Origin: Minisyncoccota bacterium
GTDB lineage: Bacteria > Patescibacteriota > Microgenomatia > UBA1400 > UBA12028
DNA: 64,000 nucleotides
Assembly: GCA_016211945.1 (NCBI GenBank)
Contig: JACRHV010000006.1
Location: forward strand, 46,723-110,722
Direction: 5' to 3'
Shown: positions 28,907 to 54,705 of the stretch, piece by piece
How the letters are laid out: each line of letters begins with the position of its first letter
Numbering within the stretch: position 1 is the first letter of the stretch
Made by a program: the position numbers and the translations under genes
The notes under the pieces: model-generated
What the model was told of the DNA's origin: nothing
Database searches by the model: none
Seen by the model: the letters and a program-made list of their open reading frames with translations, nothing else

Positions 28907-30007
28907 ATGAAGATAAAGGTACTTCAAGAGAATCTTTTGCGTGCTGCACAGGATGTTGGTAGGGGGATCTCCACAAAACCTCCTCTCCCCATATTATCAT
29001 GCATTCTTCTCGAGACAAAACAAGGGAAACTCTCATTAAAAGCCACAGATCTCTCCGTGGGGATTCAGGCGGAGGTGGGGTGCAAGGTGGAGGAGGAAGG
29101 GATTGTTGCTGTTTCAGGGAGAACGCTTATTGAACTTCTCTCAACATTTTCCGCAGGATCGATGGAGATTGAATCTCAAGAGGGGAAAATGGTTTTACGG
29201 TCGCAAAAAACTATGTCTTCAATACAGACAGTTGACTCAAAAGACTTTCCGCCTTTTCCTGAAAGAGACAATGATGGAGTAGTTCTATCGAGCGATCAAT
29301 TTATTAGCCTTATTGAAAGAGGGGGGGTGGCGGCGGGCGTTGATGAGACGCGCCCCGTTTTTTCCTCAATGCTCTTCGAGTGTTCAATCTCTCATATTGC
29401 CGTTGTGGCGACAGACGGCTATAGATTAAGTAAAGAGGTTGTGGATGTTGCAAGTGCAAAAGAGTGTATTGCACTTGTCCCTGCAAAAATTATGAGGGAG
29501 GTTGTGCGCATTGCACAAAAACAGGGGGGAGAAGTTTCCATGGTAGTCTCAGGCCAATTGGGGCAGGTGTTTTTCGGCCTTAAAGAGTATGAGATTATAG
29601 TTCGTCTTGTTGATGCTGAGTTTCCTCAATACAGCGCCATTGTTCCCCGTGAGACACAGCTCAACATCCAAGCAGAGGCGTCGGAATTGTTGTCTGCCGC
29701 AAAAACAGCAATGGTTTTTAGCAAAGAAGTCTCTGGAATTATTCAGATGAAGATAGAAAAAAGTATCCTTATAATCTCCTCTGCCGCCGCAACAGGAGAA
29801 AGTTCTGTCGAGGTTGAGACAAAGAAAGTAAGGGGGGTTGAAGGGGAAATTTCATTTAATGGGAAATATCTCATTGAGTTCCTCTCGCTTGTAAAAACAG
29901 GAGAGATAGAGTTTGGAATGAATGAGTCGCTCAAACCGGGGATCTTTACAATCCCATCACAGAAGAATTTTTATTATGTTGTTATGCCGTTTCGGGTGCA
30001 GAAGTAG
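28907..30007 (+). CDS. dnaN: DNA polymerase III beta sliding clamp
   Basis: 366 aa; 'MKIKVLQENLLRAAQDV...LPILSCILLE' DnaN N-terminus; dnaA-dnaN synteny. Confidence 0.9.
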   Translation: MKIKVLQENLLRAAQDVGRGISTKPPLPILSCILLETKQGKLSLKATDLSVGIQAEVGCKVEEEGIVAVSGRTLIELLSTFSAGSMEIESQEGKMVLRSQKTMSSIQTVDSKDFPPFPERDNDGVVLSSDQFISLIERGGVAAGVDETRPVFSSMLFECSISHIAVVATDGYRLSKEVVDVASAKECIALVPAKIMREVVRIAQKQGGEVSMVVSGQLGQVFFGLKEYEIIVRLVDAEFPQYSAIVPRETQLNIQAEASELLSAAKTAMVFSKEVSGIIQMKIEKSILIISSAAATGESSVEVETKKVRGVEGEISFNGKYLIEFLSLVKTGEIEFGMNESLKPGIFTIPSQKNFYYVVMPFRVQK

Positions 30008-31844
30008 GTTGATTTTTTTGTCGATCTAAAATTTCCTGTGGATTGGTTGTAATAAGCTCATGCTCCTCTGGCGACGCAATCACGCGTAGAGCAACGTGAT
30101 TTTGACCCGCAAAAAAGAGACCCTCCCCAACATCGCTTGCCATGAGGAATCTTTTCTCTCCTTCACTAAGGAAGAACACTTGTGAAAGATAGGGGATTGC
30201 GGCGCTGGACTGCTTCATTAAAAATTGTAATGAGGAGTTTGTGACAATAGCCTTTCCAAAATCGTTATTCAAGAAATCCTCAACGTCCTGGGTGATTGTT
30301 GTGATGCCTAAGAAATATTTTCGCGCGCGCTTCGCCATGGAATGAAGGAAGTTTGCACTGTCTCGATACTTCATGAAGTACCAGGCCTCATCAACAATGA
30401 GAATGCGCTTCTTTAGTTTTTTTCTAATGCGCGTCCAGATGAAATCGAGGATAAGAAACATGGCAATAGGACGAAGCTCCTCCTCCATCTCTTTAACAGA
30501 GAACACGGTGAATTGGTTCTTAATATCAAAGCTCGATTTTTGGTCAAAAATGCCGCGGAACGATCCTTTAATATATTTTTCAAGGCGTGCCGCCAGATTT
30601 TGTGCATCCTGATTTTCCATACCAATAAGTGATTTATATAAATCCTCCATAAGTGGAGGCTCGTTCGCCTGCGTTGCAGGATCCGGCGTAATCCCTTTTG
30701 CTTTGTATGCCGCGATGAGTGCGCGATCAAGCATTGCGTCTTCTGTGGGGGAGAGATCTCCCATCATGATTTTGAGCAGCGTATGAATGGAAATAATCTT
30801 CATGCCGAGTTCATTCTCGCCCTCTTCATAGACAGAGCTTAGGTCAAACGGATTGATTTTTTTGGGCGAATCAAAAGTAAAGTTGATGTACTCCCCACCA
30901 ACAGAGGAACAGAGGTCTTCATACTCGTGTTCAGGGTCAAGAATAATAACCTCTGCGTCAAACATGAGTTGGCGTAGCGCCTCAAGTTTTACGGCGTACG
31001 ATTTTCCAGCACCGGACTTTGCAAACACCACCATGTTCGCGTTTTCCATACTGAATCGGTCAAACACTACGAGGGATTCGTTGTGTTCATTGATTCCATA
31101 TAAAATTCCCGTATCACTCGTCAATTCTGCAGAAGTAAATGGAAAGGTTGTTGCGAGAGAGGTGGTGTCCATGTTTCTCGTAATGAGCAACTTGTCTAGA
31201 CCAATGGGGAGTGTGGTTTTAAATCCATCCTCCATCTGCAACCCAGCGACCTTGCTCACGATAAGGAGAGAGCCAAGAAGTGACCGAATTTGATTAGTAA
31301 CTTTATTGAGTTCCTCAACAGATTCTGCTGAAAGTGTGATGTAGAGGCCAAATTGATAAAACCGCTCCGCCCCTTTTGCGAGCTGTTCTTGGATGGATCG
31401 CGCGTCCTCCAGCTTAATCTCGGTATTAATGTTGCTGAGTTTTCCCTGTTTAATATCAGAACTAATCTCTGCCTCCATCTCGGTAATTTTTCTTCGAAGG
31501 TCGTCCAAGATTTTTTTCACCTCCACGGGGAAAATATGCATTGAGATATCAAGCGAGTGTGGAAAGTTAATGAGAGGGGAAAGCCAGTTTGCGGGAACGG
31601 TTCGCGGATACCCAGCAACAAAAAGTGTGCGCGTATAAATATCATTGATTTTTTGATATGAAAAATCGACCTCAATAGCTTCTGGAGAGATGATATCTTG
31701 AATACTCACAAGGCCGGAAGAAAAAGACTGAAGTTCTTGTGGGGGTTGAGCGGACGAGGCTGACGTGGGAGTGGAGGGATTTCCGCCAGAGTCAGTCTGT
31801 TTTTTTTGGAATGGGAATGAAAAGGTGGGCAGTGCGAAAGGCAT
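29982..31844 (-). CDS. VirB4/TrbE/CagE-family type IV secretion ATPase (core + ATPase domains)
   Basis: 620 aa; Walker A 'VVFAKSGAGKSYAV'; upstream VirB4 central-domain pattern 'IEVDFSYQKINDIYTRTLFVAGYPRTV..NWL'; Pro/Ser/Gln-rich N-terminal linker. Confidence 0.75.
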   Translation of the reverse strand: MPFALPTFSFPFQKKQTDSGGNPSTPTSASSAQPPQELQSFSSGLVSIQDIISPEAIEVDFSYQKINDIYTRTLFVAGYPRTVPANWLSPLINFPHSLDISMHIFPVEVKKILDDLRRKITEMEAEISSDIKQGKLSNINTEIKLEDARSIQEQLAKGAERFYQFGLYITLSAESVEELNKVTNQIRSLLGSLLIVSKVAGLQMEDGFKTTLPIGLDKLLITRNMDTTSLATTFPFTSAELTSDTGILYGINEHNESLVVFDRFSMENANMVVFAKSGAGKSYAVKLEALRQLMFDAEVIILDPEHEYEDLCSSVGGEYINFTFDSPKKINPFDLSSVYEEGENELGMKIISIHTLLKIMMGDLSPTEDAMLDRALIAAYKAKGITPDPATQANEPPLMEDLYKSLIGMENQDAQNLAARLEKYIKGSFRGIFDQKSSFDIKNQFTVFSVKEMEEELRPIAMFLILDFIWTRIRKKLKKRILIVDEAWYFMKYRDSANFLHSMAKRARKYFLGITTITQDVEDFLNNDFGKAIVTNSSLQFLMKQSSAAIPYLSQVFFLSEGEKRFLMASDVGEGLFFAGQNHVALRVIASPEEHELITTNPQEILDRQKNQPTSAPETA

Positions 31845-31908
31845 AGCGTTTTTATCTTAACATAAAAATATAGATGCCTTTTTTCGCAACGAAGGACTAC
31901 ATCACTGC

Positions 31909-32793
31909 TCACGATGGAGATTGGGATGGTTGGGAATCAGAAAAAACCTCAACGGGAACCTTTGGCTCCGCGGAAGGTTGTTGTGCCGGAGTAAAAGACG
32001 CGGATTCTTGAAGAACAGTTTGTGGCAGAGCCTCAGTTTTTACCGGCAATGAAGGCCGTTCCTCTTCGCGCGTGCTGGCAGAGTCTTTTGTAAACTCCTG
32101 TAGAGCTGGTTGGTTCATCACGCCACTTAAACTTGCCTCAACCACGGCCGTCGTGTAACTTTTTGTGTCTCCCATTTTTTGCCCCTCATATGAGCCTGGA
32201 TTGTAAATGGTGTACAAAAGCTGGATGAGCTCTTGTGTGTTCAACTGTCTTGCTTGTAGTCCAATGCGACCAAACTGTGCAGTAAGGTGATCTCTCTTAG
32301 GCTCAAGGTCGGTGAGCGCTCTTTCCAGAATGTACGCGCGGTCCAACTGAAAAGAATCTTTCTTTTTAATGGAGGGAATTGCTGACGCTGCCTCAAGAGA
32401 GGTTGCTCGAAAAGGAATGACGACATAGAACTTTTTATCTAAGATGCGTCGCTCCTTTACGAGCTCGCCAACAAACTCCCGATATCGGCGAATCTGCGTT
32501 TTACGGAGAGGGGAAAGTGTTTTATCTTCCCACTCTTTGACATAGCGAAGATATGTTGTTACGTCTTTTTTTTGAGATCGGACAACTATTTCTATGGGGA
32601 AGGTGAGAGAGTTGAGGAGGCCTGCATAGGAATAGATGATCGCATCCTGCTCTTCTTCTGCGAGAAGTCCGAAGTTCAGTGATCCAACAGAAAGAACCAT
32701 CGCGACAGAACCATCTTTCAAGATAATAATGTCGTTTGTGATGTCGAAAATCTCAAGGTAGTTTTGTGTGGTAGATTGAATATGGTTTGTCAT
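31909..32793 (-). CDS. VirB4 N-terminal-domain-like protein (separate ORF preceding the ATPase)
   Basis: 294 aa; 'DIIILKDGSVAMVLSVGSLNFGLLAEEEQDAI..LLNSLTFPIEIVV' resembles extreme N-terminus of VirB4/TraC; ends in Pro/Ser/Gln-rich low complexity; 64-nt AT-rich spacer before next ORF. Confidence 0.45.
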   Translation of the reverse strand: MTNHIQSTTQNYLEIFDITNDIIILKDGSVAMVLSVGSLNFGLLAEEEQDAIIYSYAGLLNSLTFPIEIVVRSQKKDVTTYLRYVKEWEDKTLSPLRKTQIRRYREFVGELVKERRILDKKFYVVIPFRATSLEAASAIPSIKKKDSFQLDRAYILERALTDLEPKRDHLTAQFGRIGLQARQLNTQELIQLLYTIYNPGSYEGQKMGDTKSYTTAVVEASLSGVMNQPALQEFTKDSASTREEERPSLPVKTEALPQTVLQESASFTPAQQPSAEPKVPVEVFSDSQPSQSPS

Positions 32794-32807: not shown

Positions 32808-33914
32808 TTATAATGGAGAAACAATTGCTCCATGAAGAGACAGTCTCATTGTATCAAAGGAATACCCATCTTTTTCTACGACAATGTTGTATTCGCCGGA
32901 GGGAAGCGGGGTTGAGACGAAAAATTGACCAAGCTTGTTCGATCGCAGTGCGCGAAGAGGCATTCCTAGATGGTCTTGAATTTCTATAATACACTGATCA
33001 ATCATCTTTCCGGATTGGTCAAGAATCATGCCAACCACAAGATTTGGAGTAGTTGGTGTTTTGGGGAAGGGAAGTGCAGTATTTGTTTGCACTTGAGCAA
33101 GATTTTCTCCAACACGAAGTGTGGGTTGCTGAACCGTTATGGGTCGTATAGAAGAAATATTTTCATCGATAAGATGTTGTGGAGCAATACTCTCTTCTTT
33201 CTGTAATTCAACATGAATGGGATGTTGTGAGGGAATTGCCACAGGCCCTTCGTATGTTGATTGACCAAACGTTTTTGCGGCATCAAATATTGTTTTGTTT
33301 TGTTGTTTGTCTTCGTCAACAGTGATAGAAATTGGTGATTGTGCGAAGGCGTGGAGGTTGTGCATCTCAACATGAAGCGATGGTTTTTCCGGTGCAATTT
33401 TTGTAGATGATGGACGAATGTTTGTGGACGCCGGCACAGAATCATACAACGAAATGACCGATGCTGCCTGGTAAAACAGGTCAGTTTCATCTTGAGATGG
33501 AAGCGAATTTTGTGTTATAGACTGGAAATACGCGGCCGCTCGCGCGCGTTTCCTCGGAAGCGTTGTTTCTGGTGTGTTTGGAAGTGTAGAAGAAAGCGTT
33601 GAATAGGAGAAGGCCTCGGGAATTCTCGCGGTTTTTTTCCAGTAAAATTTTGTTGGATTGTAAATCGCTCGAAGAAAAGCAAGAAACCAATGGTCAAGTG
33701 GGCGCTCCTCCAGTGGGATGAACGCAAACGCTACTCCCAAGAGGACGAAGAAGATCGTGAGCGGCCACTTCAATATGCCCGGGAGATTGGAGGAGTATGA
33801 CATGAATGCGAGAAGGCCTCCGGCACCCAACTCGAAAAACTGCTTGATTGTCATGTTGCCAATAAGGTGAAATTCGTACGAGGTAATATTCTGCGGGACA
33901 GGATGCTCTTGCAT
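32808..33914 (-). CDS. VirB3-like membrane protein fused to C-terminal Ig-like (carboxypeptidase-regulatory-like) domain
   Basis: N-terminal 2 TMs with 'FFELGAGGLLAF' and 'IPLEERPLDHWF' (VirB3/PrgI-like, immediately upstream of VirB4); C-terminal beta-sandwich-like 'LGQFFVSTPLPSGEYNIVVEKDGYSF'. Confidence 0.4.
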   Translation of the reverse strand: MQEHPVPQNITSYEFHLIGNMTIKQFFELGAGGLLAFMSYSSNLPGILKWPLTIFFVLLGVAFAFIPLEERPLDHWFLAFLRAIYNPTKFYWKKTARIPEAFSYSTLSSTLPNTPETTLPRKRARAAAYFQSITQNSLPSQDETDLFYQAASVISLYDSVPASTNIRPSSTKIAPEKPSLHVEMHNLHAFAQSPISITVDEDKQQNKTIFDAAKTFGQSTYEGPVAIPSQHPIHVELQKEESIAPQHLIDENISSIRPITVQQPTLRVGENLAQVQTNTALPFPKTPTTPNLVVGMILDQSGKMIDQCIIEIQDHLGMPLRALRSNKLGQFFVSTPLPSGEYNIVVEKDGYSFDTMRLSLHGAIVSPL

Positions 33915-34022: not shown

Positions 34023-34994
34023 CTATGGTTGGACCGCGGGAACAATAACCTCCATTGTTGAAGTATAGTTTTGGGGAGTTGTGGCGGTTCCGACAAATCG
34101 AAAATACGGGAAATATGTTTGATCAACGCTTCGGTACTCCAAGGATACCTGGGTAAAAATGATTGAGGAGAAATCCTGGACAGAAACATCAATAGGGGTT
34201 TGTGCGCGATTATTCACACCAATAGTGAGAAAAGTACCACCCCCACTTTTGATTTCCTGGAGAGCGTTTTCTACTGGACGCGTGGAATATGTTTTCTCAA
34301 CTTGCGCTTGTGTGTATTGATACGGAAGAAAACGAGCAGCCTCTATCCCACGAGAGGAAAGAGTAATAAGCGCGACAGGAAGAGAAGAATTTTCAGCGTA
34401 GAGGGGAAATCCATCGACGGTTAATGTAAAGGGAATAATAATAATGGCGGAGGCGCTCACATTTTGAAGAGGCGCACCATGAAGGTCATTAAAATATAGA
34501 ACTTGATCCTTTTGTGGTGAGAGGGAAGAAAAACCAAGTGAATCGAGAAAATCTTGTGCGGGAACGAGCGCTGTTTCGTAAGAAAGAGGAGTTTCAACTT
34601 CAGGGGAAGCTTGAACAGTATATGTGACGGCCTGCGAAACTTCATCAATGAGGAGGAATGATGTCTTATTTTCTCGCACCCAATATCCCTCAACACCACT
34701 TTCTTTTAACTGTAGTTTTTGTGCGAGTTTTGTAGAGAACTCACGTAGATCTGAAGTAAGAGGTGTTGAGGAATAAAGAGGAAGAACTTGTGGGAAACTT
34801 GGGAGAGATCCAGAGAATTCAACAGATTGAAAACGCGTTGTTGTTCCAGTCGGACTCGTGAGAACAGAAGGTGATTGTTTTTTTTGTAACGCAAATTGAA
34901 GTATAAAAAGGACAAAAACAAGAAGGGCAAGAAAAAGAAGGAAAAATAAAAGAGGATGTTTTTTTATTTTGGAAACAGCAAGAAACATTTTCAT
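34023..34994 (-). CDS. membrane-anchored extracytoplasmic protein of the T4SS-like operon (VirB8-like topology?)
   Basis: single N-terminal TM 'LLFFLLFLALLVFVLFILQF' then ~280-aa Ser/Thr-rich domain; start at internal Met gives 4-nt overlap with upstream gene. Confidence 0.45.
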   Translation of the reverse strand: MKMFLAVSKIKKHPLLFFLLFLALLVFVLFILQFALQKKQSPSVLTSPTGTTTRFQSVEFSGSLPSFPQVLPLYSSTPLTSDLREFSTKLAQKLQLKESGVEGYWVRENKTSFLLIDEVSQAVTYTVQASPEVETPLSYETALVPAQDFLDSLGFSSLSPQKDQVLYFNDLHGAPLQNVSASAIIIIPFTLTVDGFPLYAENSSLPVALITLSSRGIEAARFLPYQYTQAQVEKTYSTRPVENALQEIKSGGGTFLTIGVNNRAQTPIDVSVQDFSSIIFTQVSLEYRSVDQTYFPYFRFVGTATTPQNYTSTMEVIVPAVQP

Positions 34995-44465: not shown

Positions 44466-46154
44466 TTAACTCTTCTTTGTGGCGTCTTTCTTATCTGCGA
44501 AAGTTGTATCTCCAACTTTATTTGCAGCCCAATGACCGCCTTTTTTAAATTCTTCTTGGATAGGAACAAACGGGTCCGTTCCTGTTCCGCGAACAAAGTT
44601 TCCAGCGCTAATAAATGCACCTTTGCCAGCATCTGCAGCGGCACCAACTCCAACAGCCCCCTTCTTCAAAATATTCTCTCCAGAAACTCCGCCATATGGC
44701 AACTTTGTTGTATCTGTCCAGTCCAACCCATCCACCAACTTGCCACCCTTCCACCCTTTTTGCAAGTTGGCACTGATCTTTGGTATATACTGGTCGAATG
44801 GGCTCTTCGGATTCCCCAACATCTTGAGAGATATATCGATCGCTTCTGGCATGAGCATGAGGATGCCAATAGCAATGAGGCCTTGGATAGCACCAATGCC
44901 CTTAGAGTCAGCCCAAAATGTACTAATTTGTGGAGCTTGAAATCCCGCAGCCTGACTTGAGTCTGTACCATCAATCCATTTATATCCAACCCCCTTTGTT
45001 TCGCTTTGACCCCCTAAAACCATGGCGAGAAATATCATTGTGATAACAACGGGAAACGGTAGAAGTGTGGCAAAAAGACTGCGCAGCCACTCACTAAAAT
45101 CAAGTTTTCCGGTAAAAAGGTTTAACAAAAGTAATATTGGTGAAAAAATAACACTGATAATAAACTTGACATAACTCATGAGCAGTTTAAAAAATGTTTG
45201 TGTGACAGAGAAGAAAATAACAATGGCAAAAACAAGCTCTGCAATGATAGCACCCGAAACATTCGCAATTTTCCCAAGTCCTTGAAGATAAATATTGCTG
45301 TCTTTGCTGGAGAAAAACCCTTCAACAAGTTTCCCAACAGACAGTGCAGCTCCAGCCGTTGGATTTCCACTTCCTCCACCGAATATGAGTTGTAGTCCAT
45401 TTGAAAAAATATTGTTCGAAAGTGCAATTTTTTCAAGCGTAATTGGTTGTCCAAGTGGATCGGTAAGCGTTGGAGGAAGCAAATTTTGTAACTTAAAGAT
45501 GCCTATGATGAGATATATCATCAAATACATGATATCGATAAGAAAACCACTAATTGCAAACGAAAAAGTAATAGCAAGCGCGGTCCAGAGAAAATTTGGG
45601 ATAGCACTCGTTATGGTTACCGCTGTCTGTCCTCCCCATTTTTGCCGGAACATAATCATAAACCCGATGTACATAAATGCCAGAACAAAGAAGATATACG
45701 CAATGTCGCGAAATGCCTTCCATACTTGAAGAATAGGGCTCAAACTTTTAAACCCAATACCTTGTGCATACGCTTGAGGAACAAAAGGAGAATGTTCTAA
45801 AAGATCTGCAATCCAAACACCAGTATTTGCCGGAGGATGTGTGATCATGGCGGCCATCATATTTCCCATTTGTGGGACAACCCCCTGAATAACACTCTCT
45901 CCATCAGTCGAACGACCTCCAATAAGGATATCGGTCCACGAATGACTATTTCGCACCCAAGTTCCCAGATTATATGCCTCATTGTTAATATTACCCGTAT
46001 CTTGTGTGTGTTTGACCGCGTCATTAAATTCTTCATTGCTTGGGGTTACGAGCGATCTTCGCAAGTCTTCTGAAGGCCTTTCTGCAACAGCAAACACGGT
46101 ATGGGGAGTAAAAAAAAGCACAATGATCACAAGAAAAGAGAAAACGCGTTTCAT
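44466..46154 (-). CDS. VirB6/TrbL-like polytopic membrane protein with signal peptide and Gly-rich C-terminal tail
   Basis: start placed at 'MKRVFSFLVIIVLFFTPHTVFAVA' signal peptide; ~120-aa extracytoplasmic N-domain then at least 6 TM segments ('IAYIFFVLAFMYIGFMIMF', 'LWTALAITFSFAISGFLIDIMYLMIYLIIGIF' ...). Confidence 0.5.
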   Translation of the reverse strand: MKRVFSFLVIIVLFFTPHTVFAVAERPSEDLRRSLVTPSNEEFNDAVKHTQDTGNINNEAYNLGTWVRNSHSWTDILIGGRSTDGESVIQGVVPQMGNMMAAMITHPPANTGVWIADLLEHSPFVPQAYAQGIGFKSLSPILQVWKAFRDIAYIFFVLAFMYIGFMIMFRQKWGGQTAVTITSAIPNFLWTALAITFSFAISGFLIDIMYLMIYLIIGIFKLQNLLPPTLTDPLGQPITLEKIALSNNIFSNGLQLIFGGGSGNPTAGAALSVGKLVEGFFSSKDSNIYLQGLGKIANVSGAIIAELVFAIVIFFSVTQTFFKLLMSYVKFIISVIFSPILLLLNLFTGKLDFSEWLRSLFATLLPFPVVITMIFLAMVLGGQSETKGVGYKWIDGTDSSQAAGFQAPQISTFWADSKGIGAIQGLIAIGILMLMPEAIDISLKMLGNPKSPFDQYIPKISANLQKGWKGGKLVDGLDWTDTTKLPYGGVSGENILKKGAVGVGAAADAGKGAFISAGNFVRGTGTDPFVPIQEEFKKGGHWAANKVGDTTFADKKDATKKS

Positions 46155-46218: not shown

Positions 46219-49200
46219 ATGGTTCCTCGATTTTCTCTCTTTATTACCTCTGTTATTTCCATTTTTGTTTTTCTGGCATTTCCTTCCGGTATTCGAGCGG
46301 TAGAGTTGGGAACGCATGTTGCCCATTTTGATCGTGGAGCGGAGATCGGTGTTTTAGGCCTTATTCGAAGCAAGTTGAGCAAACAAGATGGATATCCCGT
46401 TACCATCAACATTGATCCGCAATGGTCAACAGCAGAGATCCAAGAACTTGCCGACAAGGCAGAAGGCTTTCGTGTTGCTCTTCGTATTATTAGCGTTTCA
46501 AGCAAAGCAACCCCAGAAGAAATGCAAACGCTTGTTCAACAACTCAATGGTGTGCGTTGGAAGACTACAGGAAAACCTGTTGTTGTGTTGGGAAACGAAC
46601 TGAATAACTTAGTAGATGAATGGAAAAGTATTGCTGTTTCAGTTGAGGCTGCGGGAGCTGCGTACACACCACTTCATGATGTGATATGGTCAGGGTCGCC
46701 AAAATTAGACATGGGAAGGTACGACCTTGCTGCTGCAACCATTGACCCATACCATCCGAACAACTGGAAACTTTTTGTGTCAGGGGCGGGGAGGGCATAT
46801 ACACAGCACAATACAATCTTTGTAGCAAACATCTATGAAAACAGTGCAGAGGACACAAAAAAACGGATTGAAGAAATCAAATCGGGAATTTCCGGAGTAC
46901 CGTCAAAAACAATACTCACAGAGTATGGACCAAAAGACCCCAAATCGCCGCTTGCTGAGTACATGCGGTTCTATAAAGAGAACGCTCCGCCATCCAATGT
47001 GGAATATGCGACCGCACTACTCGCTAATTATTGTAAGAAAGATAAGGCAGTTTTTGGATATTTCTACTATATAGAAGGAAAAGTGTACACGATTGATGGT
47101 GATGAGGTGGACCCACAAACCTGTCTCGGGGCAAAATCACTCACTGATGAATCAAAAACCCCAGATGATGAGGTAGACGGCATCTATGTCTACAAAGATA
47201 TCTATAAAAATGTGCTGTTAAATGGGGAAAAAGGAGGGAAGGAAAGTGCGTCAAGATACGTCATGATGTGTGCTCCGCAATTTTGGACAGACGCTGAGAT
47301 TCAAGACCAAGATAAAAAAATCTATTGGGAAAAACTTGGCGACAAGGCAAAAACACTCAGCGAGTACTGCACAAGTGAGATAGGATCAAATACGAACGAA
47401 CCAAACTGCGTATTCGATCCTGTCACTGCAAACTTTACTGTTATTAATGATAATCTTACGGTTCCGTTGTATAGGAAGGCGACCTTTAATGATAAAGGTC
47501 AGCAAATGGACAATAACAGGGCAGAAAGCATTGAGTCGTTTTTTGGAACGAACACAAAAGAGGGAAGAAAAACAGGGGATCCGCTTTTATATTCACCCAA
47601 CGTCAAACTTCTTTCAAAGGCGCAGTACTGCACTCAAACAGTTCGATACTTAAAGGCAATTGAGATGATGTGCCAAGAACCGCAAGCACAGCAATCAACA
47701 ACAGACAAAGAAATAGTGCCTAGGGGAAAATGCACATTGAACAATGAATTCGAGAACAGTCGAAAACAAAAAGTGCGCTATTTGGATATTCTCAAACAAG
47801 TAAAAGACAACGCGGCTGCTCAGGGGCTACAGACACCAGAAGACTATTGTGATCTTGTAGTAAAAAAACAAGACCCCAATCTCATGAAGGACCTTGCCCA
47901 AGTCCAACCGCTCACAAAAAATGCGTTTAAAATTGGATACCTTGTCTATTACAATACCGGGAGGTATAAAAAAGACTCAAATGATCCGGAAGACAAAGCC
48001 GCTTTTCAGGATAGCTCAGAATATTTCCACCCGGTCTACAGAACATTGCGCGATTACTATGCCAATGTGACATTCCAAGTAATTCCCTTCTTAGTTCCTG
48101 CAAATGTATTTAGCACCTCGTCACAGGAAGACGTTGTTGGAAATTCGTTCGCCTCGTTTGATAGTCCGTACACAACAGTATTTCAAACACTCATGCCGCA
48201 AGCAAAGATAAACCAATTGGCAGAAAGTGAACAAAAAAGAAGAGTGATGATTGAGTCTCAACTCGATCAACCATGGAATGCATTCAATGACGCTAGTCAG
48301 GAAAAACCGTACATTCAATGTCCTGTTTGCGATGACAGTTATAACAAGAGAGGATATGTTCCGTCGGTGGGGTCTTTAGCGGCAAACAAAACGTATCTCG
48401 CTTTTGCAAAAACGATATGGAGACGCATCAATGCGGGAATCTACACAAAAGAATTTGTGCAAAATTTGGATGTAAAACAGGGAAATGAACTCGTGGCCCA
48501 ACCTCCTGATATTTGGAATAGTTGCAATGTGGCGCCGGAACTCGTCCGCGGTGAGTCTGCGCAAGCACTCCATTCACAGGGTGGCATTTCCTTGATAAAG
48601 GATGGAAAAGAAACGTTGTGGGGGAAGGTGAAGCAGTCGGCGACAGAGATTACATCGCTCATCCGTGCTCCTAAGGGTACTCGGAGAGATCCGTATGAAT
48701 ATTACGTTCGGGGATATCTCCTTTTACCGCAAGAATACGGATATCTTCTCTCGACAGAACAGGATTTTCTGCGAGCGTTGATCCCGTACTCTGCACAAAA
48801 AAATATTTTAGAGACAGAGCAAAAGAAGAACGACTTTAACGCATTTGGTAATATCGCAGGACTTGATCCGTCTAAAGCAGACTATGATAAACAAGTTCCG
48901 CTATGGAATCGTTTTCTTCGCTTAAACGGCCAGGTTTTTGGACTAAACGATCTGACCGCAGACTCTACGGGAAAGCACGGCAAAGATGGGAATCCGGACA
49001 CATATTACACAGAATCTAAAGATGAATATGAAGCACGCGTCGCAAAAGCAAGACAAGATTGTGCAAATAGAGGGATTTTGCCAAGAGACTGCTCAATTCC
49101 GGAGCGGAAGAAAACAGAGATTACAGCAAAGCAAACATCACAAAATCCAGGATATAAAGAGGGAAAAACCGATTTTCGTCCCATCCTTCCGGGAGGATGG

Positions 49201-50028
49201 TTAGCGCGGGGCATCTTTGAGTTGATGGCACACATTACTTCGAGTAAAGGAAGTGCCAACTTTCAAGATAAATATTGTGGACTGGAAGACTATTTATTGG
49301 GGACAAACTGTGCGGGTGCGGGAAGTACAAGTTCGATCAAAAATACAACAACCTCATCTACAAAGGGAGATATCGCGTGTATAAATGTATGGGTTGATGA
49401 AGCAACGGCACAGGCACACGCACAAGACATTTTAGCAAGTCTTCCTTCACGCGCAGATTGGGGGAAATATTTTTCTGGTTATTTGAGTGATCCGGTAAGG
49501 CAGTGCAAGGATCCAACCACAAACCCAAGTCCGAGTGAATACGATAGCGTGGCAAAGCAATATCTCTTTGAGTCTGTTCCTGAATGCGGTGGAGTGTCGT
49601 GCTATTCGTATATTGTTCAGCGCACATTATCTGCAAAGACATCGGACGGTAAGGTTGTTGATCCCTACATCGCAATTTCTATTGCATTAAATGAAAATGG
49701 TGGACTAAAAACAGCGAGGAAAGATCGGATGAGTCAACATTTTGGAGTGGTGACTCCTATTACGGGTCACTCAAAAGAATGTCCGGAGGATAACGAGTAC
49801 ATGGGCAGAATTGATGAGAAACTCGACATCATGCTCCAAACGCTCATCGCAGGATATAAGGGAAAGGATACTTTGGGTGCAGATGGTGTTGCGGCATTAG
49901 AGCGATATAAATCGGGAAGTAATGCAAGACCGCTTGAAGATCAAACGTATAGTCAGAAAATGATACAACTTACACAGATCATCAGCGGTAACGCATACTC
50001 ACCACTGTGTACAGGGAAAACTCTTTAA
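46219..50028 (+). CDS. giant (1269-aa) secreted protein; N-terminal region with GH-A-like 'VVVLGNELNN' motif
   Basis: start placed at 'MVPRFSLFITSVISIFVFLAFPSGIRA' signal peptide (track ORF start at 45982 would overlap divergent gene); 30+ Cys; no repeats. Confidence 0.6.
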   Translation: MVPRFSLFITSVISIFVFLAFPSGIRAVELGTHVAHFDRGAEIGVLGLIRSKLSKQDGYPVTINIDPQWSTAEIQELADKAEGFRVALRIISVSSKATPEEMQTLVQQLNGVRWKTTGKPVVVLGNELNNLVDEWKSIAVSVEAAGAAYTPLHDVIWSGSPKLDMGRYDLAAATIDPYHPNNWKLFVSGAGRAYTQHNTIFVANIYENSAEDTKKRIEEIKSGISGVPSKTILTEYGPKDPKSPLAEYMRFYKENAPPSNVEYATALLANYCKKDKAVFGYFYYIEGKVYTIDGDEVDPQTCLGAKSLTDESKTPDDEVDGIYVYKDIYKNVLLNGEKGGKESASRYVMMCAPQFWTDAEIQDQDKKIYWEKLGDKAKTLSEYCTSEIGSNTNEPNCVFDPVTANFTVINDNLTVPLYRKATFNDKGQQMDNNRAESIESFFGTNTKEGRKTGDPLLYSPNVKLLSKAQYCTQTVRYLKAIEMMCQEPQAQQSTTDKEIVPRGKCTLNNEFENSRKQKVRYLDILKQVKDNAAAQGLQTPEDYCDLVVKKQDPNLMKDLAQVQPLTKNAFKIGYLVYYNTGRYKKDSNDPEDKAAFQDSSEYFHPVYRTLRDYYANVTFQVIPFLVPANVFSTSSQEDVVGNSFASFDSPYTTVFQTLMPQAKINQLAESEQKRRVMIESQLDQPWNAFNDASQEKPYIQCPVCDDSYNKRGYVPSVGSLAANKTYLAFAKTIWRRINAGIYTKEFVQNLDVKQGNELVAQPPDIWNSCNVAPELVRGESAQALHSQGGISLIKDGKETLWGKVKQSATEITSLIRAPKGTRRDPYEYYVRGYLLLPQEYGYLLSTEQDFLRALIPYSAQKNILETEQKKNDFNAFGNIAGLDPSKADYDKQVPLWNRFLRLNGQVFGLNDLTADSTGKHGKDGNPDTYYTESKDEYEARVAKARQDCANRGILPRDCSIPERKKTEITAKQTSQNPGYKEGKTDFRPILPGGWLARGIFELMAHITSSKGSANFQDKYCGLEDYLLGTNCAGAGSTSSIKNTTTSSTKGDIACINVWVDEATAQAHAQDILASLPSRADWGKYFSGYLSDPVRQCKDPTTNPSPSEYDSVAKQYLFESVPECGGVSCYSYIVQRTLSAKTSDGKVVDPYIAISIALNENGGLKTARKDRMSQHFGVVTPITGHSKECPEDNEYMGRIDEKLDIMLQTLIAGYKGKDTLGADGVAALERYKSGSNARPLEDQTYSQKMIQLTQIISGNAYSPLCTGKTL

Positions 50029-50030: not shown

Positions 50031-50468
50031 TTATTTATCCGGAAGCTCAATCTGAAATGTTTTTATCGATTCTACGCCGGTAAAACTGGAAATAAAGTTC
50101 AGTGCAATAAAGCCGGAAACGGATAACGCGATCCCAATAAAAGCTGCGGTGATTGTTTTTTGTCCCGTTTCGGTTCCTTTGGGATTTCCGCCGGAAGTTG
50201 AGTACAAAAGTGCTCCAACAATAAGCATAACAAATGAGGCAACTCCTACGGCAGTGACCGCAATGGCAAGGATGTTCGAAACAACGCACTCTATACCAAC
50301 AAGCGTTGCGACGTCTTGTTCATTTGTGCCCTTTCCGACACATTTTGGATTAATCGTTGTCCACTCAGAAGTACTCTGAGCGTATACAGGAGAGGTAGAG
50401 ATGGAAAAAGCAATGAGAAACGAAAAAAGAAGAAACATTGTTCGAGAAAAAATCGAGTGTTTTTGCAT
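50031..50468 (-). CDS. VirB2/TrbC-like two-TM pilin candidate, paralog 1 (own transcription unit)
   Basis: signal-like N-term, TM1 'AVGVASFVMLIVGALLY', loop 'STSGGNPKGTETGQKTITAAF', TM2 'IGIALSVSGFIALNFI'. Confidence 0.55.
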   Translation of the reverse strand: MQKHSIFSRTMFLLFSFLIAFSISTSPVYAQSTSEWTTINPKCVGKGTNEQDVATLVGIECVVSNILAIAVTAVGVASFVMLIVGALLYSTSGGNPKGTETGQKTITAAFIGIALSVSGFIALNFISSFTGVESIKTFQIELPDK

Positions 50469-50500
50469 AAAAGAATTGTATCACACCAGGGAAAGTAAAC

Positions 50501-50526
50501 AAAAAGCCCCGGTTCCCCGGGGCCTT
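50501..50526 (-). terminator. rho-independent terminator downstream of pilin-like paralog 2
   Basis: minus-strand RNA: GCCCCGG-GGAA-CCGGGGC followed by UUUUU. Confidence 0.6.
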
Positions 50527-50545
50527 AACTTCAATAAAAAAAAGA

Positions 50546-50884
50546 TTAATACCCTTTTGGAAGCGTTGCTCCAATATTGAAGACATCAACTCCAAAGAAG
50601 TACGCAACAACCTGCATCAATGCATATGACGCTGCAACAATCGCCAAACCAACAAGTGCGGCGGTAATTTTGTTTCGCGCATTCTCTGTTTTTCCTTTAT
50701 CTCCACCCGATGTAATCCACTCAACGCCACCGAGAACGAGATATGCGAAAACAAGAATAGCAGAAACCAACAACGCGACGTTCAAGACGCGCGAGAAAAG
50801 AAGACCGATGTCGGTGATCTTGAACCCATTCGATTGGGGATCAATCGTGATTGGTGGTTTTGCTTGTGCGAGTAGGGCGAGCAT
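50546..50884 (-). CDS. VirB2/TrbC-like two-TM pilin candidate, paralog 2
   Basis: 'AYLVLGGVEWITSGGDKGKTENARNKITAALVGLAIVAASYAL'. Confidence 0.55.
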   Translation of the reverse strand: MLALLAQAKPPITIDPQSNGFKITDIGLLFSRVLNVALLVSAILVFAYLVLGGVEWITSGGDKGKTENARNKITAALVGLAIVAASYALMQVVAYFFGVDVFNIGATLPKGY

Positions 50885-50933
50885 ATTTCCTCCTTTTGTC
50901 CTAGATGTATTCTATATGTTCTTTCTCTGTATA

Positions 50934-51251
50934 TCAAGGGTTTACTATTGTAATGTCGAGTCCAAAGAAATAGTTGATAATGCGGAAGATTGCAAAGACA
51001 CTCACCATCACAGCCAAACCAATGAGCCCTTGTGTAATCATCTGTTTTGCGTTATCTATTTTTCCTTTATCGCCACTTGCAATAATCCACATGAATCCAC
51101 CAAGAACCATGTATGCCAAAGCGGCAACTGAAGCAACGGCCAGAGCCAGCCCAGCATATCGTCCAATCAATGTTCCCAAGTCCAGTTGAACTTTTGGTCC
51201 CAAATTCGATCGGATATCAACTTTTTGCGCAAGTAGTATTGGTAACGTCAT
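50934..51251 (-). CDS. VirB2/TrbC-like two-TM pilin candidate, paralog 3
   Basis: 'AYMVLGGFMWIIASGDKGKIDNAKQMITQGLIGLAVMVSVFAI'. Confidence 0.55.
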   Translation of the reverse strand: MTLPILLAQKVDIRSNLGPKVQLDLGTLIGRYAGLALAVASVAALAYMVLGGFMWIIASGDKGKIDNAKQMITQGLIGLAVMVSVFAIFRIINYFFGLDITIVNP

Positions 51252-51260
51252 ACTATTCCT

Positions 51261-51830
51261 TTATTTACATCCTCCGCGTCCGTCCGGATTTACCCCAGAG
51301 TCGCATGGAGCGTTTCCCGCATTACAGTTACAGGTGTCGCTAATCCCAAATCCACACATACCCTGATTTTTTCCACCGCATGTATTACAAATATTTGGAT
51401 TATTGAGAGTAATTGGAGTTTTCCCCTGACAATACGGATTCGAAGACCCCGTTCCAGTAGAGGAGGTTCCGCCAAGATCTCCAGAGATGCGTGTGAAATC
51501 TGGTGCCAAGAGATCAATTCCAAGTGCGGTGCCAAAGAATGTACTGATGGCCGCGACTGAGAATAATACAGCCAATCCAATAAGACCCTGTGTGATTCTA
51601 TCTTTTGCTTGCTCGATTTTCCCCTTATCACCTCCCGCAGAAATCCAGGTCAACCCACCCATAATCATGTATGCAACAACCGCCAATCCACCAAGAACGA
51701 GGGAAGTTTGCCACAGAATTCCAATATATTTCCCCAAACCTGTACCAGCAACATCGGGATTAGCTGCGTTTTGCAGTCCTGCAGGGAGAGCGGGATTTGA
51801 GATGTCGGCCAACATTGTAGATAACGTCAT
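51261..51830 (-). CDS. VirB2/TrbC-like two-TM pilin candidate, paralog 4, with Cys-rich C-terminal extension
   Basis: 'AYMIMGGLTWISAGGDKGKIEQAKDRITQGLIGLAVLFSVAAI' then 60-aa tail with 10 Cys ('CNTCGGKNQGMCGFGISDTCNCNAGNAPCDSG'). Confidence 0.55.
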   Translation of the reverse strand: MTLSTMLADISNPALPAGLQNAANPDVAGTGLGKYIGILWQTSLVLGGLAVVAYMIMGGLTWISAGGDKGKIEQAKDRITQGLIGLAVLFSVAAISTFFGTALGIDLLAPDFTRISGDLGGTSSTGTGSSNPYCQGKTPITLNNPNICNTCGGKNQGMCGFGISDTCNCNAGNAPCDSGVNPDGRGGCK

Positions 51831-51831
51831 A

Positions 51832-52209
51832 TTATTGCCACAACCCTTCCAACATTTTTACGGGACTGAGAATACTGATTCCCAACACACCACCAACAAT
51901 ACTAATGATAAACTGAGCAAGAATGACAATAATGAGTCCGATCGCAGCGTTCGTCATTTGAGTTCGAGCAGCCTCAACCTTTCCTTTATCCCCACTGGCG
52001 GAAAGCCAAGCCAACCCACCGAAAACGAAGTACATAAGAAACATAAGTCCGCCAATAATAGTGAAGAAACCCAGAAAAACAGAGAGAAATTTTTCAATTG
52101 CTCCGCCCCCTGCCTCGGCTCCAGTTCCATCTGCTGGTCGGAAATACGGACTCGTTCCCTGGATTGTTCCTTGAAGAGGGTTTTGCGCAAGTAAAGAGAG
52201 TACGTTCAT
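51832..52209 (-). CDS. VirB2/TrbC-like two-TM pilin candidate, paralog 5
   Basis: 'MYFVFGGLAWLSASGDKGKVEAARTQMTNAAIGLIIVILAQFI'. Confidence 0.55.
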   Translation of the reverse strand: MNVLSLLAQNPLQGTIQGTSPYFRPADGTGAEAGGGAIEKFLSVFLGFFTIIGGLMFLMYFVFGGLAWLSASGDKGKVEAARTQMTNAAIGLIIVILAQFIISIVGGVLGISILSPVKMLEGLWQ

Positions 52210-52718
52210 CGCGTTCTTCCCCCGTTATTGTTCCGATCTCGTAGTGAATCAGGTAGCGCTTTGAGAATAGCGTCAATGTCTCCATTGGATGAGGAACCGG
52301 AGTTTCTTCCCGGACCCCCCTCTGGACCACCGCCAGATGAAGCAGGAGCTCCCGGGCCTTGAATAACAGGACTCACAAAAAAAGTAGCATCCTTGAAGAG
52401 GAGAAATCCAGTCAAAGCCATAAGGGCAGGGGCAAGAATCATAATGACCAAACCCCACAGACTCATGTTTAATTTACTCATGACTTTCTCATGTGCTTTT
52501 GCATCTCCTGCTGAAGTAAGATAGGTATATCCAGCCATGACAATGTTATACAGAGCAATGAGTCCCCCTACAATAATTGCCATTCTTAACAGATTTGTTG
52601 TGAGAGTAATAAGTCCACCACTAGCACCGTAATCTGCAATCGCAGCTGGCGGTGTTATTGTTCCAAAAAATGTTGAGTCTGCCATTATTCTTTTTCCTAC
52701 ATTACTACGGACCACCAT
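52206..52718 (-). CDS. VirB2/TrbC-like two-TM pilin candidate, paralog 6 (divergent loop, Gly/Ser/Asn-rich C-terminal extension)
   Basis: 'LYNIVMAGYTYLTSAGDAKAHEKVMSKLNMSLWGLVIMILAPAL' then 'PGAPASSGGGPEGGPGRNSGSSSNGD'; real start possibly the internal Met of 'MADSTFF'. Confidence 0.5.
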   Translation of the reverse strand: MVVRSNVGKRIMADSTFFGTITPPAAIADYGASGGLITLTTNLLRMAIIVGGLIALYNIVMAGYTYLTSAGDAKAHEKVMSKLNMSLWGLVIMILAPALMALTGFLLFKDATFFVSPVIQGPGAPASSGGGPEGGPGRNSGSSSNGDIDAILKALPDSLRDRNNNGGRTR

Positions 52719-53037
52719 TCAATATGGGCTGTCCTATGACAATTTGTACAACTTGGATGATCCAATAAGCAGAAAGGATGACCAAAAAACCAATGACTGC
52801 AGTTTGAATAGTCTGCATTCCTTTCTCTGTTCCCTTAGGATCTCCTCCTGACATAAGTATAGTAAGTCCGCCGCCAATGAGCAAGCCAAAAATGATAATT
52901 CCAGCAAACACATACATGTTTGGAAGAACAACTTTATTTAAAAAATCTGCTGGAGTAGCAAAGACGTCTGCAACGGAAGAGGAGCTGTTCAATTTATATT
53001 TCTCACCCAAATCAATAGCAATAAGCGTGCCATTCAT
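52705..53037 (-). CDS. VirB2/TrbC-like two-TM pilin candidate, paralog 7
   Basis: 'IFGLLIGGGLTILMSGGDPKGTEKGMQTIQTAVIGFLVILSAYWIIQVVQIV'. Confidence 0.55.
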   Translation of the reverse strand: MNGTLIAIDLGEKYKLNSSSSVADVFATPADFLNKVVLPNMYVFAGIIIFGLLIGGGLTILMSGGDPKGTEKGMQTIQTAVIGFLVILSAYWIIQVVQIVIGQPILNGGP

Positions 53038-53060
53038 GATGGAAGTATTGTATCACAGGT

Positions 53061-53459
53061 TTATTGAGGAGTTGCAGACGATGTTCCGGTTTTTTGTGTC
53101 GCACTTTCTGTCGCTGTGCTTTCTTTTTTTGGTGTTCCTGCTTCTGCTGTAACCGCAGTCTTCTTTAATCCCTTTTCATCTGTCTCGGTAATTTCTTTGA
53201 TAATAGGGAAAGTTGACAGAACTTCATCGGGATACAACTTTCTTTGTCTCAAGTCTTGAAGCGTTTTTATATCAAGTACGGGGGTAAGCGGTTGAACTTG
53301 TCGCTGAACTGTTGGCGGAATAGACGATTTGTGAAGAGAAAAATATATTGTCATTCCGATCCAAACTCCAACAGCAACCAAGGATACGACAAAAATCGTC
53401 AGGATAATCTGTCTTCTAAAAAGCGATTTGATGAATGGTTGTTCCTGTGCTGCGTTCAT
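53061..53459 (-). CDS. hypothetical single-pass membrane protein (Thr/Ser-rich C-terminus)
   Basis: TM 'IILTIFVVSLVAVGVWIGMTIYF'; co-oriented between PilO-like gene and pilin-like array. Confidence 0.45.
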   Translation of the reverse strand: MNAAQEQPFIKSLFRRQIILTIFVVSLVAVGVWIGMTIYFSLHKSSIPPTVQRQVQPLTPVLDIKTLQDLRQRKLYPDEVLSTFPIIKEITETDEKGLKKTAVTAEAGTPKKESTATESATQKTGTSSATPQ

Positions 53460-54133
53460 GGTGTTTTTTCATCCTTCTTTGCAGAACTTCCTGGAAGTTG
53501 TATTGGAGTGCCATAGTATGCAACGCGAAAAGCAATAGTTGTAATGAGTGAGCTGGTTTTCTCAAATTCGTCTCGTTTCGCATTCATTACAAGCGAATCA
53601 ACCGAAACATACCGATCCATTGCCAACATCTCGGCAATAAACGCGCGGACGAGTGGGTATGGGGCCTTCAGATTGACGCTGATCAAATAACTTGTGAGCT
53701 GAGGAGCGGTGCTCGTTGCTTCTTTTGGAACTTGTGTGACCTGCAGCGAGTTAATGAGTACGGTATGTGCCGTTGCGACATACTCAAGACGTCGCATGAA
53801 TCCATCAAAATTTGGTGTGTTCGGTATTGCTTTATGAAGTAAGCTTACTTCATTCTTTAACGTCGGAAGCTCACTACTTAATGTAGAAAGTGAGGCTATT
53901 TTTTTTGAAAGTGCGTCGCTCGTTTTTCTCCGGTCCTCGATATCATGGAGCAGTTGTGACATGGTGAGCAACGTTGGACGAATGGCAAAAAGCGCGAGAA
54001 GGATGACCGCGAGAAGTGTTGCAATAAGCTCTGTGGAGACCTTTGCAATCGGTTTTTGATAAAACTGTTGCAGCTGCCTCACCGTTTGGTTGCGTGGTGC
54101 GGAGGGTATTGAAGAAAACGGTGAGTGTATCAT
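53456..54133 (-). CDS. PilO-like type IV pilus/secretion inner-membrane assembly protein
   Basis: 225 aa; short cytoplasmic N-term, TM 'LIATLLAVILLALFAI', coiled coil, then ~120-aa C-domain; overlaps PilN-like gene by 4 nt. Confidence 0.45.
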   Translation of the reverse strand: MIHSPFSSIPSAPRNQTVRQLQQFYQKPIAKVSTELIATLLAVILLALFAIRPTLLTMSQLLHDIEDRRKTSDALSKKIASLSTLSSELPTLKNEVSLLHKAIPNTPNFDGFMRRLEYVATAHTVLINSLQVTQVPKEATSTAPQLTSYLISVNLKAPYPLVRAFIAEMLAMDRYVSVDSLVMNAKRDEFEKTSSLITTIAFRVAYYGTPIQLPGSSAKKDEKTP

Positions 54134-54705
54134 GACGTTTTCCCTCCCGGTATGGGTTGTATTTGCACGCGAATAGAAAACTCTAGGCCGGCACCACCCT
54201 GCGTATTGCTTTTAATTTGATCGACATACAATGCTTTTGTTTGCGGTTGTTTTTGAAGTCTGCGCACAAGAACAGCCAACGATTCAGGAGTAAGTGCGTT
54301 CCCAGTAATCTGCACTTCCTGTGCGCGAATCTGAACAAGTGTATAGACCACATCTTTAGGAATGCTTTTTGCGAGAACATCAAGCGCACTCAACGGATCC
54401 TGTGTCCCTTTTTGTTGTTGGAGGAACTCCGTTTTTTTCTGGATGAGACGTACATCCGACTCTAATGTTCCGTACGAATCAACAATGTAGGACTTTTGTG
54501 TAATGGATGAGTTCAGATCAGTAAGATCGCGGTCGAGTTTAAAACGAGAGGCGAAACTGATAATGACAACAATTTCAGTAAAAATAACAAGGTAGCGACC
54601 AACAGTGGAGGCCCACGCCATAATGCGCCCAACGGGAGTCTCAAAAAAAGGATCCTGAGGAAGCAAATTTATCGACAGATGGCGGGGCTGGACGCTGGTC
54701 TGCAT
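54130..54705 (-). CDS. PilN-like assembly protein (INLLP motif)
   Basis: 191 aa; N-terminal 'LSINLLPQDPFF' (PilN INLLP PilM-binding motif) followed by TM 'YLVIFTEIVVIISFA' and periplasmic domain. Confidence 0.55.
   Translation of the reverse strand: MQTSVQPRHLSINLLPQDPFFETPVGRIMAWASTVGRYLVIFTEIVVIISFASRFKLDRDLTDLNSSITQKSYIVDSYGTLESDVRLIQKKTEFLQQQKGTQDPLSALDVLAKSIPKDVVYTLVQIRAQEVQITGNALTPESLAVLVRRLQKQPQTKALYVDQIKSNTQGGAGLEFSIRVQIQPIPGGKTS

Follow-up and report, generated by a model that had tools for sequence, protein, structure and literature searches.

Which kind of machinery is encoded beside the predicted replication origin of a Minisyncoccota bacterium, in a block of genes between positions 29982 and 54705 of a 64-kb stretch of contig JACRHV010000006.1? 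This stretch was analysed at its full length and is called the window throughout. The block begins at the 3' end of dnaN and resembles a type IV secretion system (T4SS). A first-pass annotation, made from the letters alone, had described it as a T4SS-like locus, had argued against a conjugative element, and had proposed an atypical, possibly undescribed variant of which PilN- and PilO-like proteins would be a part. By open reading frame (ORF) listing and profile searches nearly all genes of that description were recovered at the same coordinates. Two components had been absent from it, a TrsD-like gene (31909–32793) and an eighth pilin-like ORF (63693–63962). We consider it highly probable that the block is a chromosomal, origin-proximal T4SS of the kind that Patescibacteria typically possess, in this case within a genome of Microgenomatia type, and that it has been turned to a use other than conjugation. 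The locus is a fresh instance of this recently described system and no undescribed variant. Pilin arrays of this size, adjacency to dnaA or dnaN, the missing relaxase and a distant type IV coupling protein (T4CP) are already contained in PMC12102498.

T4SSs of Patescibacteria are central to host exploitation by ultrasmall epibionts. For the saccharibacterium Southlakia epibionticum, Wang et al. (2023) reported an essential origin-proximal T4SS (SEML1_0006–0019) with an essential series of pilins, in which neither a coupling protein nor a relaxase could be recognised; its requirement for epibiotic growth was revealed by transposon sequencing (Tn-seq) (PMC10633639). For no T4SS before it had a need for the growth of its bearer been demonstrated, according to a 2025 review in which the Patescibacteria T4SS points are repeated (PMC12857230). 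Quinonero-Coronel et al. (2025) placed the patescibacterial VirB4 clade as sister to MPF_FATA. TrsD was found as the most abundant VirB4 partner and PrgI was found as well, together with M23/LysM-type hydrolases, divergent VirB6 and rare VirB8. The same survey lists 441 VirB2 arrays of 2–11 genes with a mean identity of 25%, especially in Microgenomatia and Saccharimonadia. Relaxases are almost entirely missing, T4CP genes lie far from virB4, and the T4SS lies close to dnaA, dnaN and rnpA (PMC12102498).

The locus in the window shares with these systems the VirB4 with adjacent TrsD, the PrgI/VirB3 protein and a putative VirB6-like protein (PMC12102498, PMC10633639). Wall hydrolases of the peptidase type close to virB4, arrays of PF18895 pilins, the absence of a relaxase or T4CP nearby, and the position beside dnaA, dnaN and rnpA are likewise common to both. 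In contrast to the described systems, it extends over about 25 kb, a length due to three or four large genes specific to the lineage. Its VirB6 candidate escapes sequence hidden Markov models (HMMs), its PrgI is extended by about 270 residues, and a PilN-PilO-p132 module precedes the pilin array, with which it forms one apparent operon in this clade. The window gives no new principle and offers three usable leads, each of which may be new: for Microgenomatia, a VirB6 candidate at the level of fold; next to the M23 peptidase gene, a slot with variable content; and the clade-specific operon that runs from PilN to the pilins.

Core of the Secretion System

The ATPase that would drive the apparatus is encoded by virB4 (29982–31844, minus strand). 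The 620-residue product matched P-loop_TraG (PF19044, 4.9e-29), AAA_10 and CagE_TrbE_VirB (9.5e-6) in Pfam, and the NCBIfam model conju_CD1110 (NF045971) with 387 bits at a cutoff of 325, which marks it as CD1110- or MPF_FATA-like. Walker A (AKSGAGKS) and Walker B (ILIVDE) motifs are present. The usual N-terminal domain is missing, the match being confined to positions 182–734 of the CD1110 profile. The adjoining gene encodes a TrsD-like protein of 294 residues (31909–32793, minus strand), which covers positions 11–173 of the same profile (1.7e-4). Since the two products cover complementary parts of one model, VirB4 is split, with its N-terminal domain encoded separately. The TrsD-like protein also matched VirB4_plasma, the Mycoplasma VirB4 profile, at 103–281 (1.3e-9) and TrsD (NF041427, 2.5e-6), all NCBIfam scores staying below the curated cutoffs; a precomputed Pfam match assigns it to PF26593 (TraC-like).

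The VirB3-like call of the first-pass annotation stands as well as its VirB4 call. The PrgI/VirB3-like membrane protein (32808–33914, minus strand) reached 29.6 bits against PF12666 (1.1e-6; gathering score 27). Its long C-terminal extension of about 270 residues contains a weak CarboxypepD_reg-like domain (PF13620, 1.4e-3), and the same pair of domains is found in the PrgI homologues of two relatives (L086 and L087).

Two further genes belong to the core. The 1056-residue M23 metallopeptidase protein (34991–38161, minus strand) consists of an uncharacterised N-terminal region of about 690 residues, a transmembrane (TM) segment at 758–776 and a C-terminal M23 domain (PF01551, 2.8e-9, residues 924–1024), in which both the HxxxD motif (HATWD) and the HxH motif (HLH) are intact. 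It is a plausible candidate for a cell-wall hydrolase in the VirB1-like role suggested for it earlier, and such a role has precedent. The single-pass membrane protein of the first-pass annotation corresponds to p330 (34023–35015, minus strand), a bitopic protein of 330 residues with one N-terminal TM segment and about 290 residues outside. Position and topology make p330 a candidate for a VirB8-type subunit. It gave no match in Pfam, NCBIfam, PHROGs or, by profile search, the PDB. Two close homologues were obtained in a word-index search, and the AlphaFold model built from the resulting two-sequence alignment had a predicted local distance difference test (pLDDT) value of 36, too low for use.

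The arrangement of these genes was compared over 83 metagenomic loci, 80 of them from a TrsD-seeded metagenome scan and three anchored on VirB4, by ORF and HMM analysis. The order M23, p330, PrgI, TrsD, VirB4 is conserved. TrsD adjoins PrgI in 72 of 74 loci and VirB4 in 63 of 73, and the M23 gene adjoins p330 in 32 of 48. A p330 gene, at about 20% identity, lies between M23 and PrgI in 28–30 of 57 loci. The next gene past VirB4 is dnaA or dnaN in 32 of 51 loci, and beyond it rnpA, yidD, yidC, jag, RNase H and DUF4012 genes occur. The overall layout recurs in two relatives, whose contigs measure 995 kb and 811 kb, with a distance of 23–24 kb between PilN and VirB4. Past the M23 gene, conservation across relatives collapses.

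For VirB4 itself, homologues number more than 8000. Among them the top 120 are 71–99% identical to it and bear names from several candidate phyla radiation (CPR) lineages, which points to a strongly constrained core gene and not to mobile cargo. The neighbouring p330 and M23 proteins drop to about 20% identity; the constraint on the ATPase is unusually strong.

Monoderm conjugative systems of the MPF_FATA type (pCF10 Prg/Pcf, pGO1 Trs, CTn2 CD1110, ICEBs1) have in common with the locus the CD1110-type VirB4, TrsD, PrgI and a membrane-anchored multidomain peptidoglycan hydrolase; the PrgK protein of pCF10 also contains a LytM/M23 domain. They possess, however, relaxase, T4CP and oriT, reside on mobile elements and use adhesins in place of VirB2 pilins, whereas the present locus is chromosomal and origin-linked, has seven or eight pilins, and no relaxase or T4CP was found in the window.

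Origin Proximity and Genomic Context

Adjacency to the origin, as proposed in the first-pass annotation, could be substantiated. The 3' end of dnaN (28907–30007, plus strand) overlaps the convergent virB4 by 26 nt, and the same overlap is found in a relative (L085). For the DnaA box TTATCCACA, with at most one mismatch, 29 matches were counted in the window compared to 15.9 ± 4 expected. Nine of the 29 fall within 27096–28893, in clusters that flank dnaA (27171–28628), and the cumulative GC-skew minimum is located at 24–26 kb of the window. Owing to this cluster and the skew minimum, the T4SS locus is taken to abut the chromosomal origin (oriC), which is predicted to lie about 1 kb from virB4.

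Genes for DNA processing could not be detected. The first-pass annotation had listed no relaxase, VirD4/TraG, VirB11 or second P-loop protein in the block, and the observation extends to the whole window: Pfam scans of all large ORFs revealed no relaxase, T4CP or VirB11. No coupling ATPase of the VirD4 or TcpA type is present in the window either: of the products of 150 residues or more, DnaA and VirB4 alone contain a Walker A motif. Large ORFs outside the block all encode housekeeping functions according to Pfam (GroEL, Ddl, a Mur ligase, LeuRS, L25, two YidC, RnpA, and further Jag, RNase H, UppS and UMP kinase). The flanks of the block are formed by conserved housekeeping genes in the relatives too, and the GC content across the block is flat at 0.39–0.45. 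A chromosomal T4SS-like apparatus that has no DNA-processing genes and is placed among housekeeping genes argues against a conjugative element, in agreement with PMC10633639 and PMC12102498.

The locus could also be a decayed integrated conjugative element (ICE) that has lost its relaxase and coupling protein or has them beyond the window. The VirB4 family owes its name to conjugative elements (CD1110), and a tyrosine recombinase gene is present at 773–1639. This recombinase, though, lies 28 kb away across housekeeping genes, and the core synteny with dnaA/dnaN is kept across many species. The flat GC content and the high VirB4 identity across lineages among the best 120 homologues speak against such an element, as does the small number of relaxases in a Patescibacteria dataset, 109 in total with 15 near virB4 (PMC12102498). 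We regard an ICE origin of this kind as very improbable; on account of the housekeeping context, the flat GC content and the conserved dnaA synteny it was rejected.

Pilin Array and VirB6 Candidate

The origin-distal part of the block comprises the pilin genes, a large secreted protein and a polytopic membrane protein. All seven VirB2-like pilin candidates proposed earlier (50031–53037, minus strand) matched PF18895, with E values from 8e-10 to 2e-3 and three of them above the gathering score; against our own pilin HMM values of 1e-30 to 1e-40 were obtained. The products are divergent, with a mean pairwise identity of 26% and a maximum of 44%, and each contains two TM segments. A terminator-like hairpin (50526–50503) separates pil6 from pil7.

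With respect to export signals, four of the seven pilins begin with a very short leader of the type M-x-L-x-x-LLAQ and lack a classical signal peptide. The last pilin (50031–50468), set apart by the strong hairpin, has a full Sec-type signal. The eighth T4SS-pilin-like ORF (63693–63962, minus strand) lies outside the reported block and was found with our own pilin HMM (3.3e-28); it adjoins a gene for a 1328-residue protein with a transglutaminase core (59679–63665). Relatives likewise have 2–3 additional pilin genes, located some kb upstream of PilN (L002, 1290–2587; L003, 4812–6925; L006, 3633–4695; L007, 4970–6098); they stand beside uppS in L002 and L003 and at a comparable distance in L006 and L007. 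Some of these additional pilin-like products are long, with about 290 residues.

The VirB6/TrbL-like assignment of the first-pass annotation agrees with the topology and, marginally, with the modelled fold, and found no support from sequence HMMs. The 562-residue protein in question, VirB6L (44466–46154, minus strand), has seven hydrophobic segments predicted as TM segments. Neither Pfam nor NCBIfam gave a TrbL, VirB6 or PrgH match for it, Pfam scans of 62 diverse family members taken singly remained equally negative, and the family profile had no match among PDB sequences. The family is large, with 2959 representative clusters (50% identity) at E ≤1e-3, and an AlphaFold model on the family alignment reached a pLDDT of 78 and a predicted template modelling score of 0.64. 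When this model was compared to the PDB with Foldseek, the top seven matches were TrwI/VirB6 chains from the T4SS of R388 (lowest E 5.7e-3, probability 1.0); the next, unrelated match had an E value of 1.4. VirB6L is therefore proposed as a fold-level VirB6 candidate, on marginal but consistent model-based evidence. The marginal match fits the remark in PMC12102498 that VirB6 is 'scarce' in Microgenomatia through extreme divergence, and the VirB6L family would cover a class in which published HMM surveys found few VirB6 proteins.

Between the pilin array and VirB6L lies p1269 (46219–50028, plus strand), a Cys-rich protein of 1269 residues with an N-terminal hydrophobic segment that is read as a Sec signal. 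Its family is present in L002, L003, L006, L007, L008 and L169, and within the clade of the window it always occupies this position. The window protein itself had no match in Pfam, NCBIfam, PHROGs or PDB sequences. Among seven family members, Pfam gave one match to Cellulase GH5 (4.6e-4) and one to Glyco_hydro_cc (0.035), and it is possible that the N-terminal domain is similar to glycosidases of clan GH-A. As side observations, the family has an invariant Cys-rich core and an N-terminal pattern GNELNN...TEYGP that by eye resembles clan GH-A glycosidases, and some homologues end in G-x-x-GP-x-Q, reminiscent of lytic transglycosylases. An assignment of p1269 as a glycosidase was set aside, the weak Pfam matches being restricted to 2 of 7 members and the GNELNN and TEYGP motifs having been recognised by eye only.

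The PilN-PilO-p132 Module

Upstream of the pilins, the PilN-like (54130–54705) and PilO-like (53456–54133) proteins of the first-pass annotation were both verified on the minus strand with scores above the gathering thresholds (PF05137, 3.4e-12; PF04350, 2.8e-7), PilO also matching T2SSM_b (1.1e-4). They are followed by p132 (53061–53459, minus strand), a bitopic protein of 132 residues and the product of the third gene of the module. The arrangement is similar to the PilM-PilN-PilO(-PilP) assembly of type IVa pili in that a PilN with an INLLP motif, a PilO and a small bitopic protein in the PilP position are present. It is unlike loci of type IVa pili in that no PilM, PilB, PilC, PilT, PilD or type IV pilin is encoded nearby. 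In an alignment of 40 sequences, N12 of the N-terminal INLLP motif is invariant and P15 is at least 90% conserved. INLLP is the PilM-binding motif described for type IV pili (T4P), and its conservation suggests that the usual PilM partner persists elsewhere.

Does this module belong to the secretion system, as the first-pass annotation had assumed? PilN loci were collected by a PilN search and a scan of species-representative genomes, with flanks of up to 10 kb on each side; the informative set consisted of 66 species genomes in which the sequence downstream of PilN reached 3 kb or more. PilN, PilO and p132 occur as a three-gene module in 76–83 loci, p132 following PilO in 76. Upstream, murJ was found in 62 of 83 loci, with LepA and S20 further upstream. 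Downstream, a TM protein of 518 residues with fn3-like (fn3/Big) domains follows in 70 loci. Pilin-like ORFs were absent from the fetched flanks in 63 of the 66 species genomes even at E ≤10, and three carry the array. Overlooked pilins beside the other PilN loci were thus ruled out, no match having been obtained at this threshold. No PilM or other T4P genes were seen among the annotated recurrent neighbour clusters of PilN loci, an annotation from which rare neighbours were left out.

Most sampled CPR copies of the module therefore adjoin murJ, whereas in the window its neighbours are VirB2-type pilins. Counting two further relatives, the module abuts a pilin array only in the window and in L002, L003, L006, L007 and L008, at PilN identities of 44–72%. 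In this clade the order is PilN-PilO-p132, seven pilins, a large secreted protein and VirB6L. Neighbouring genes within the module overlap by 4 nt, the gap from p132 to the first pilin amounts to 23 nt, and no terminator occurs between p132 and the pilins until the hairpin at 50526–50503.

This tight arrangement can be explained in two ways. Most likely, PilN-PilO-p132 is an envelope module in its own right, whose probable task is in type IV pili that are encoded elsewhere. On our reading of the gene orders, one rearrangement would have placed it upstream of the pilin array, with which it is presumably co-transcribed in the clade. Alternatively, the three genes might have been captured into the VirB2 pilin operon as an assembly or alignment platform, giving a T4P/T4SS chimera in this clade. 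Such a capture would fit the 4-nt overlaps and the 23-nt gap with no terminator, the maintenance of the arrangement in the five relatives down to 44% PilN identity, and the fact that no PilM, PilB, PilC, PilD or pilin with a class-III signal was found in the window. It is at odds with the 63 of 66 species genomes that keep the module with neither a pilin nor a VirB6-like gene in the flank, and with the murJ and fn3-like neighbours of most other copies. The conserved INLLP motif again suggests a PilM partner elsewhere, and a single ancestral rearrangement would account for the adjacency. We consider a chimera unlikely, and prefer the reading as a separate module; the earlier view of PilN and PilO as parts of a variant secretion system found no support. 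PilN or PilO in the context of a T4SS is mentioned nowhere in PMC12102498, PMC10633639 or PMC12857230. If functional, the operon from PilN to the pilins would connect two kinds of pilus machinery so far regarded as distinct, and a true chimera would be the first case in which T4P alignment proteins cooperate with the pilins of a type IV secretion system.

The neighbourhood murJ-PilN-PilO-p132-fn3 is found in most sampled CPR species genomes (L004, L009–L084; for example L004, 8246–13370). Many records of such CPR loci (L006, L010, L013, L017, L058 and others) have 'uncultured Pseudomonadales', 'Vitreimonas sp.', 'TM6' or 'Limisphaerales' in their titles, which look like taxonomic mislabels of metagenome-assembled genomes.

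The Variable Slot Beside the M23 Gene

Where conservation ends, beyond the M23 gene, three genes for large soluble proteins lie between the two parts of the block, in a slot that spans 38167–44450 of the window. The first-pass annotation had regarded them, together with p1269, as ORFans by eye, and indeed none of the four matched Pfam, NCBIfam or PHROGs. The product next to M23, p603 (38167–39978, minus strand; 603 residues, no TM segment), had no match among PDB sequences either; homologues occur in four loci and in the family of L087 (hhalign 95%). In L085, whose VirB4 is 87% identical, the slot (1–3642; in L087, 814–2448) contains a different family, which is common to eight other loci (L095, L099, L106–L110 and L112). 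The hhalign probability between the p603 family and the L085-slot family is 1–2%, compared to 95–97% within the families. The slot is thus occupied by at least two unrelated families of soluble proteins of 520–690 residues.

The two remaining genes are encoded on the plus strand. The acidic, lysine-rich soluble p446 (40104–41444; 446 residues) and the soluble p963 (41559–44450; 963 residues) were found only in L001, a near-identical 16-kb contig; p963 has no TM segment and no PDB match.

In its exchange of occupants the slot looks like a cassette-style variable slot. Being soluble, of fast turnover and placed between sub-modules, p603, p446 and p963 could conceivably be substrates or accessory factors of the T4SS, and the slot beside M23 may hold swappable effectors. 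Since it turns over even at 87% VirB4 identity, it is a natural place to seek such proteins.

Proposed Function and Alternatives

In the mechanism that we propose, the T4SS would descend from monoderm, MPF_FATA-like conjugation machinery and serve a non-conjugative purpose. The block contains two sub-modules, the core of M23, p330, PrgI, TrsD and VirB4 on one side, and the pilin array with the large secreted protein and the VirB6-fold candidate on the other. At the cytoplasmic membrane, PrgI and VirB6 would offer a docking site to VirB4 and TrsD, which would power the extraction and polymerisation of pilins, while the M23 protein, perhaps together with a glycosidase-like p1269, would open the cell wall locally. 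The resulting pilus or channel could mediate contact to the host cell, followed by protein export or exchange of material, and the sequence-diverse pilin paralogues might broaden or vary surface specificity. Transfer would proceed without a coupling protein, as in the Ptl system of Bordetella and the VirB system of Brucella, both of which work without VirD4 (PMC12857230). These are a precedent for VirB4-driven export of substrates that are delivered by Sec or otherwise recruited. At the locus level, however, they are unrelated to the block described here, being diderm systems with VirB7, VirB9 and VirB10 as well as VirB11.

Several points weigh against this interpretation. The function, be it export, adhesion or uptake, is deduced from Tn-seq in Saccharibacteria and from gene content. 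The absence of T4CP and relaxase applies to the 64-kb window, not to the rest of the genome, and profile searches at the locus gave no VirB8 match. Further, the tight operon of PilN, PilO and p132 with the pilins in six genomes, with its 23-nt gap and translational coupling, could, as the less likely case, mean a functional link.

The opposite direction of transport has to be weighed as well, that is, an apparatus for the import of DNA or host macromolecules, comparable to Ced of archaea or ComB of Helicobacter. At the family level VirB4 is similar to CedB (3e-12), Patescibacteria depend on their hosts for nucleotides, and neither relaxase nor T4CP was found in the window. In the class ABY1 the T4SS co-localises with comF, recG and radA (PMC12102498). 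The CedB match, however, reaches 46 bits against a cutoff of 700 and is generic to the VirB4 family, and the window contains no competence genes. In S. epibionticum the T4SS is essential, whereas a comEC deletion mutant is viable (PMC12857230), so that the essential role is not ComEC-linked DNA uptake. An uptake machine appears improbable to us, and a non-conjugative apparatus for host contact and export or exchange of material is favoured.

Further Features of the Window

Far from the block, a gene for a PKD-domain protein is followed by a sortase gene within 6173–8221; like the transglutaminase-core protein, these products are surface-related. A tRNA(CAT) gene (2136–2381, plus strand) was found in which the anticodon loop is split by a group I intron of 175 nt (RF00028, 56 bits; ARAGORN with introns allowed). 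A mismatch of C1 and A72 points to an initiator tRNA. Downstream, at 2450–2523 on the same strand, lies a tRNA-Met gene that is intact.

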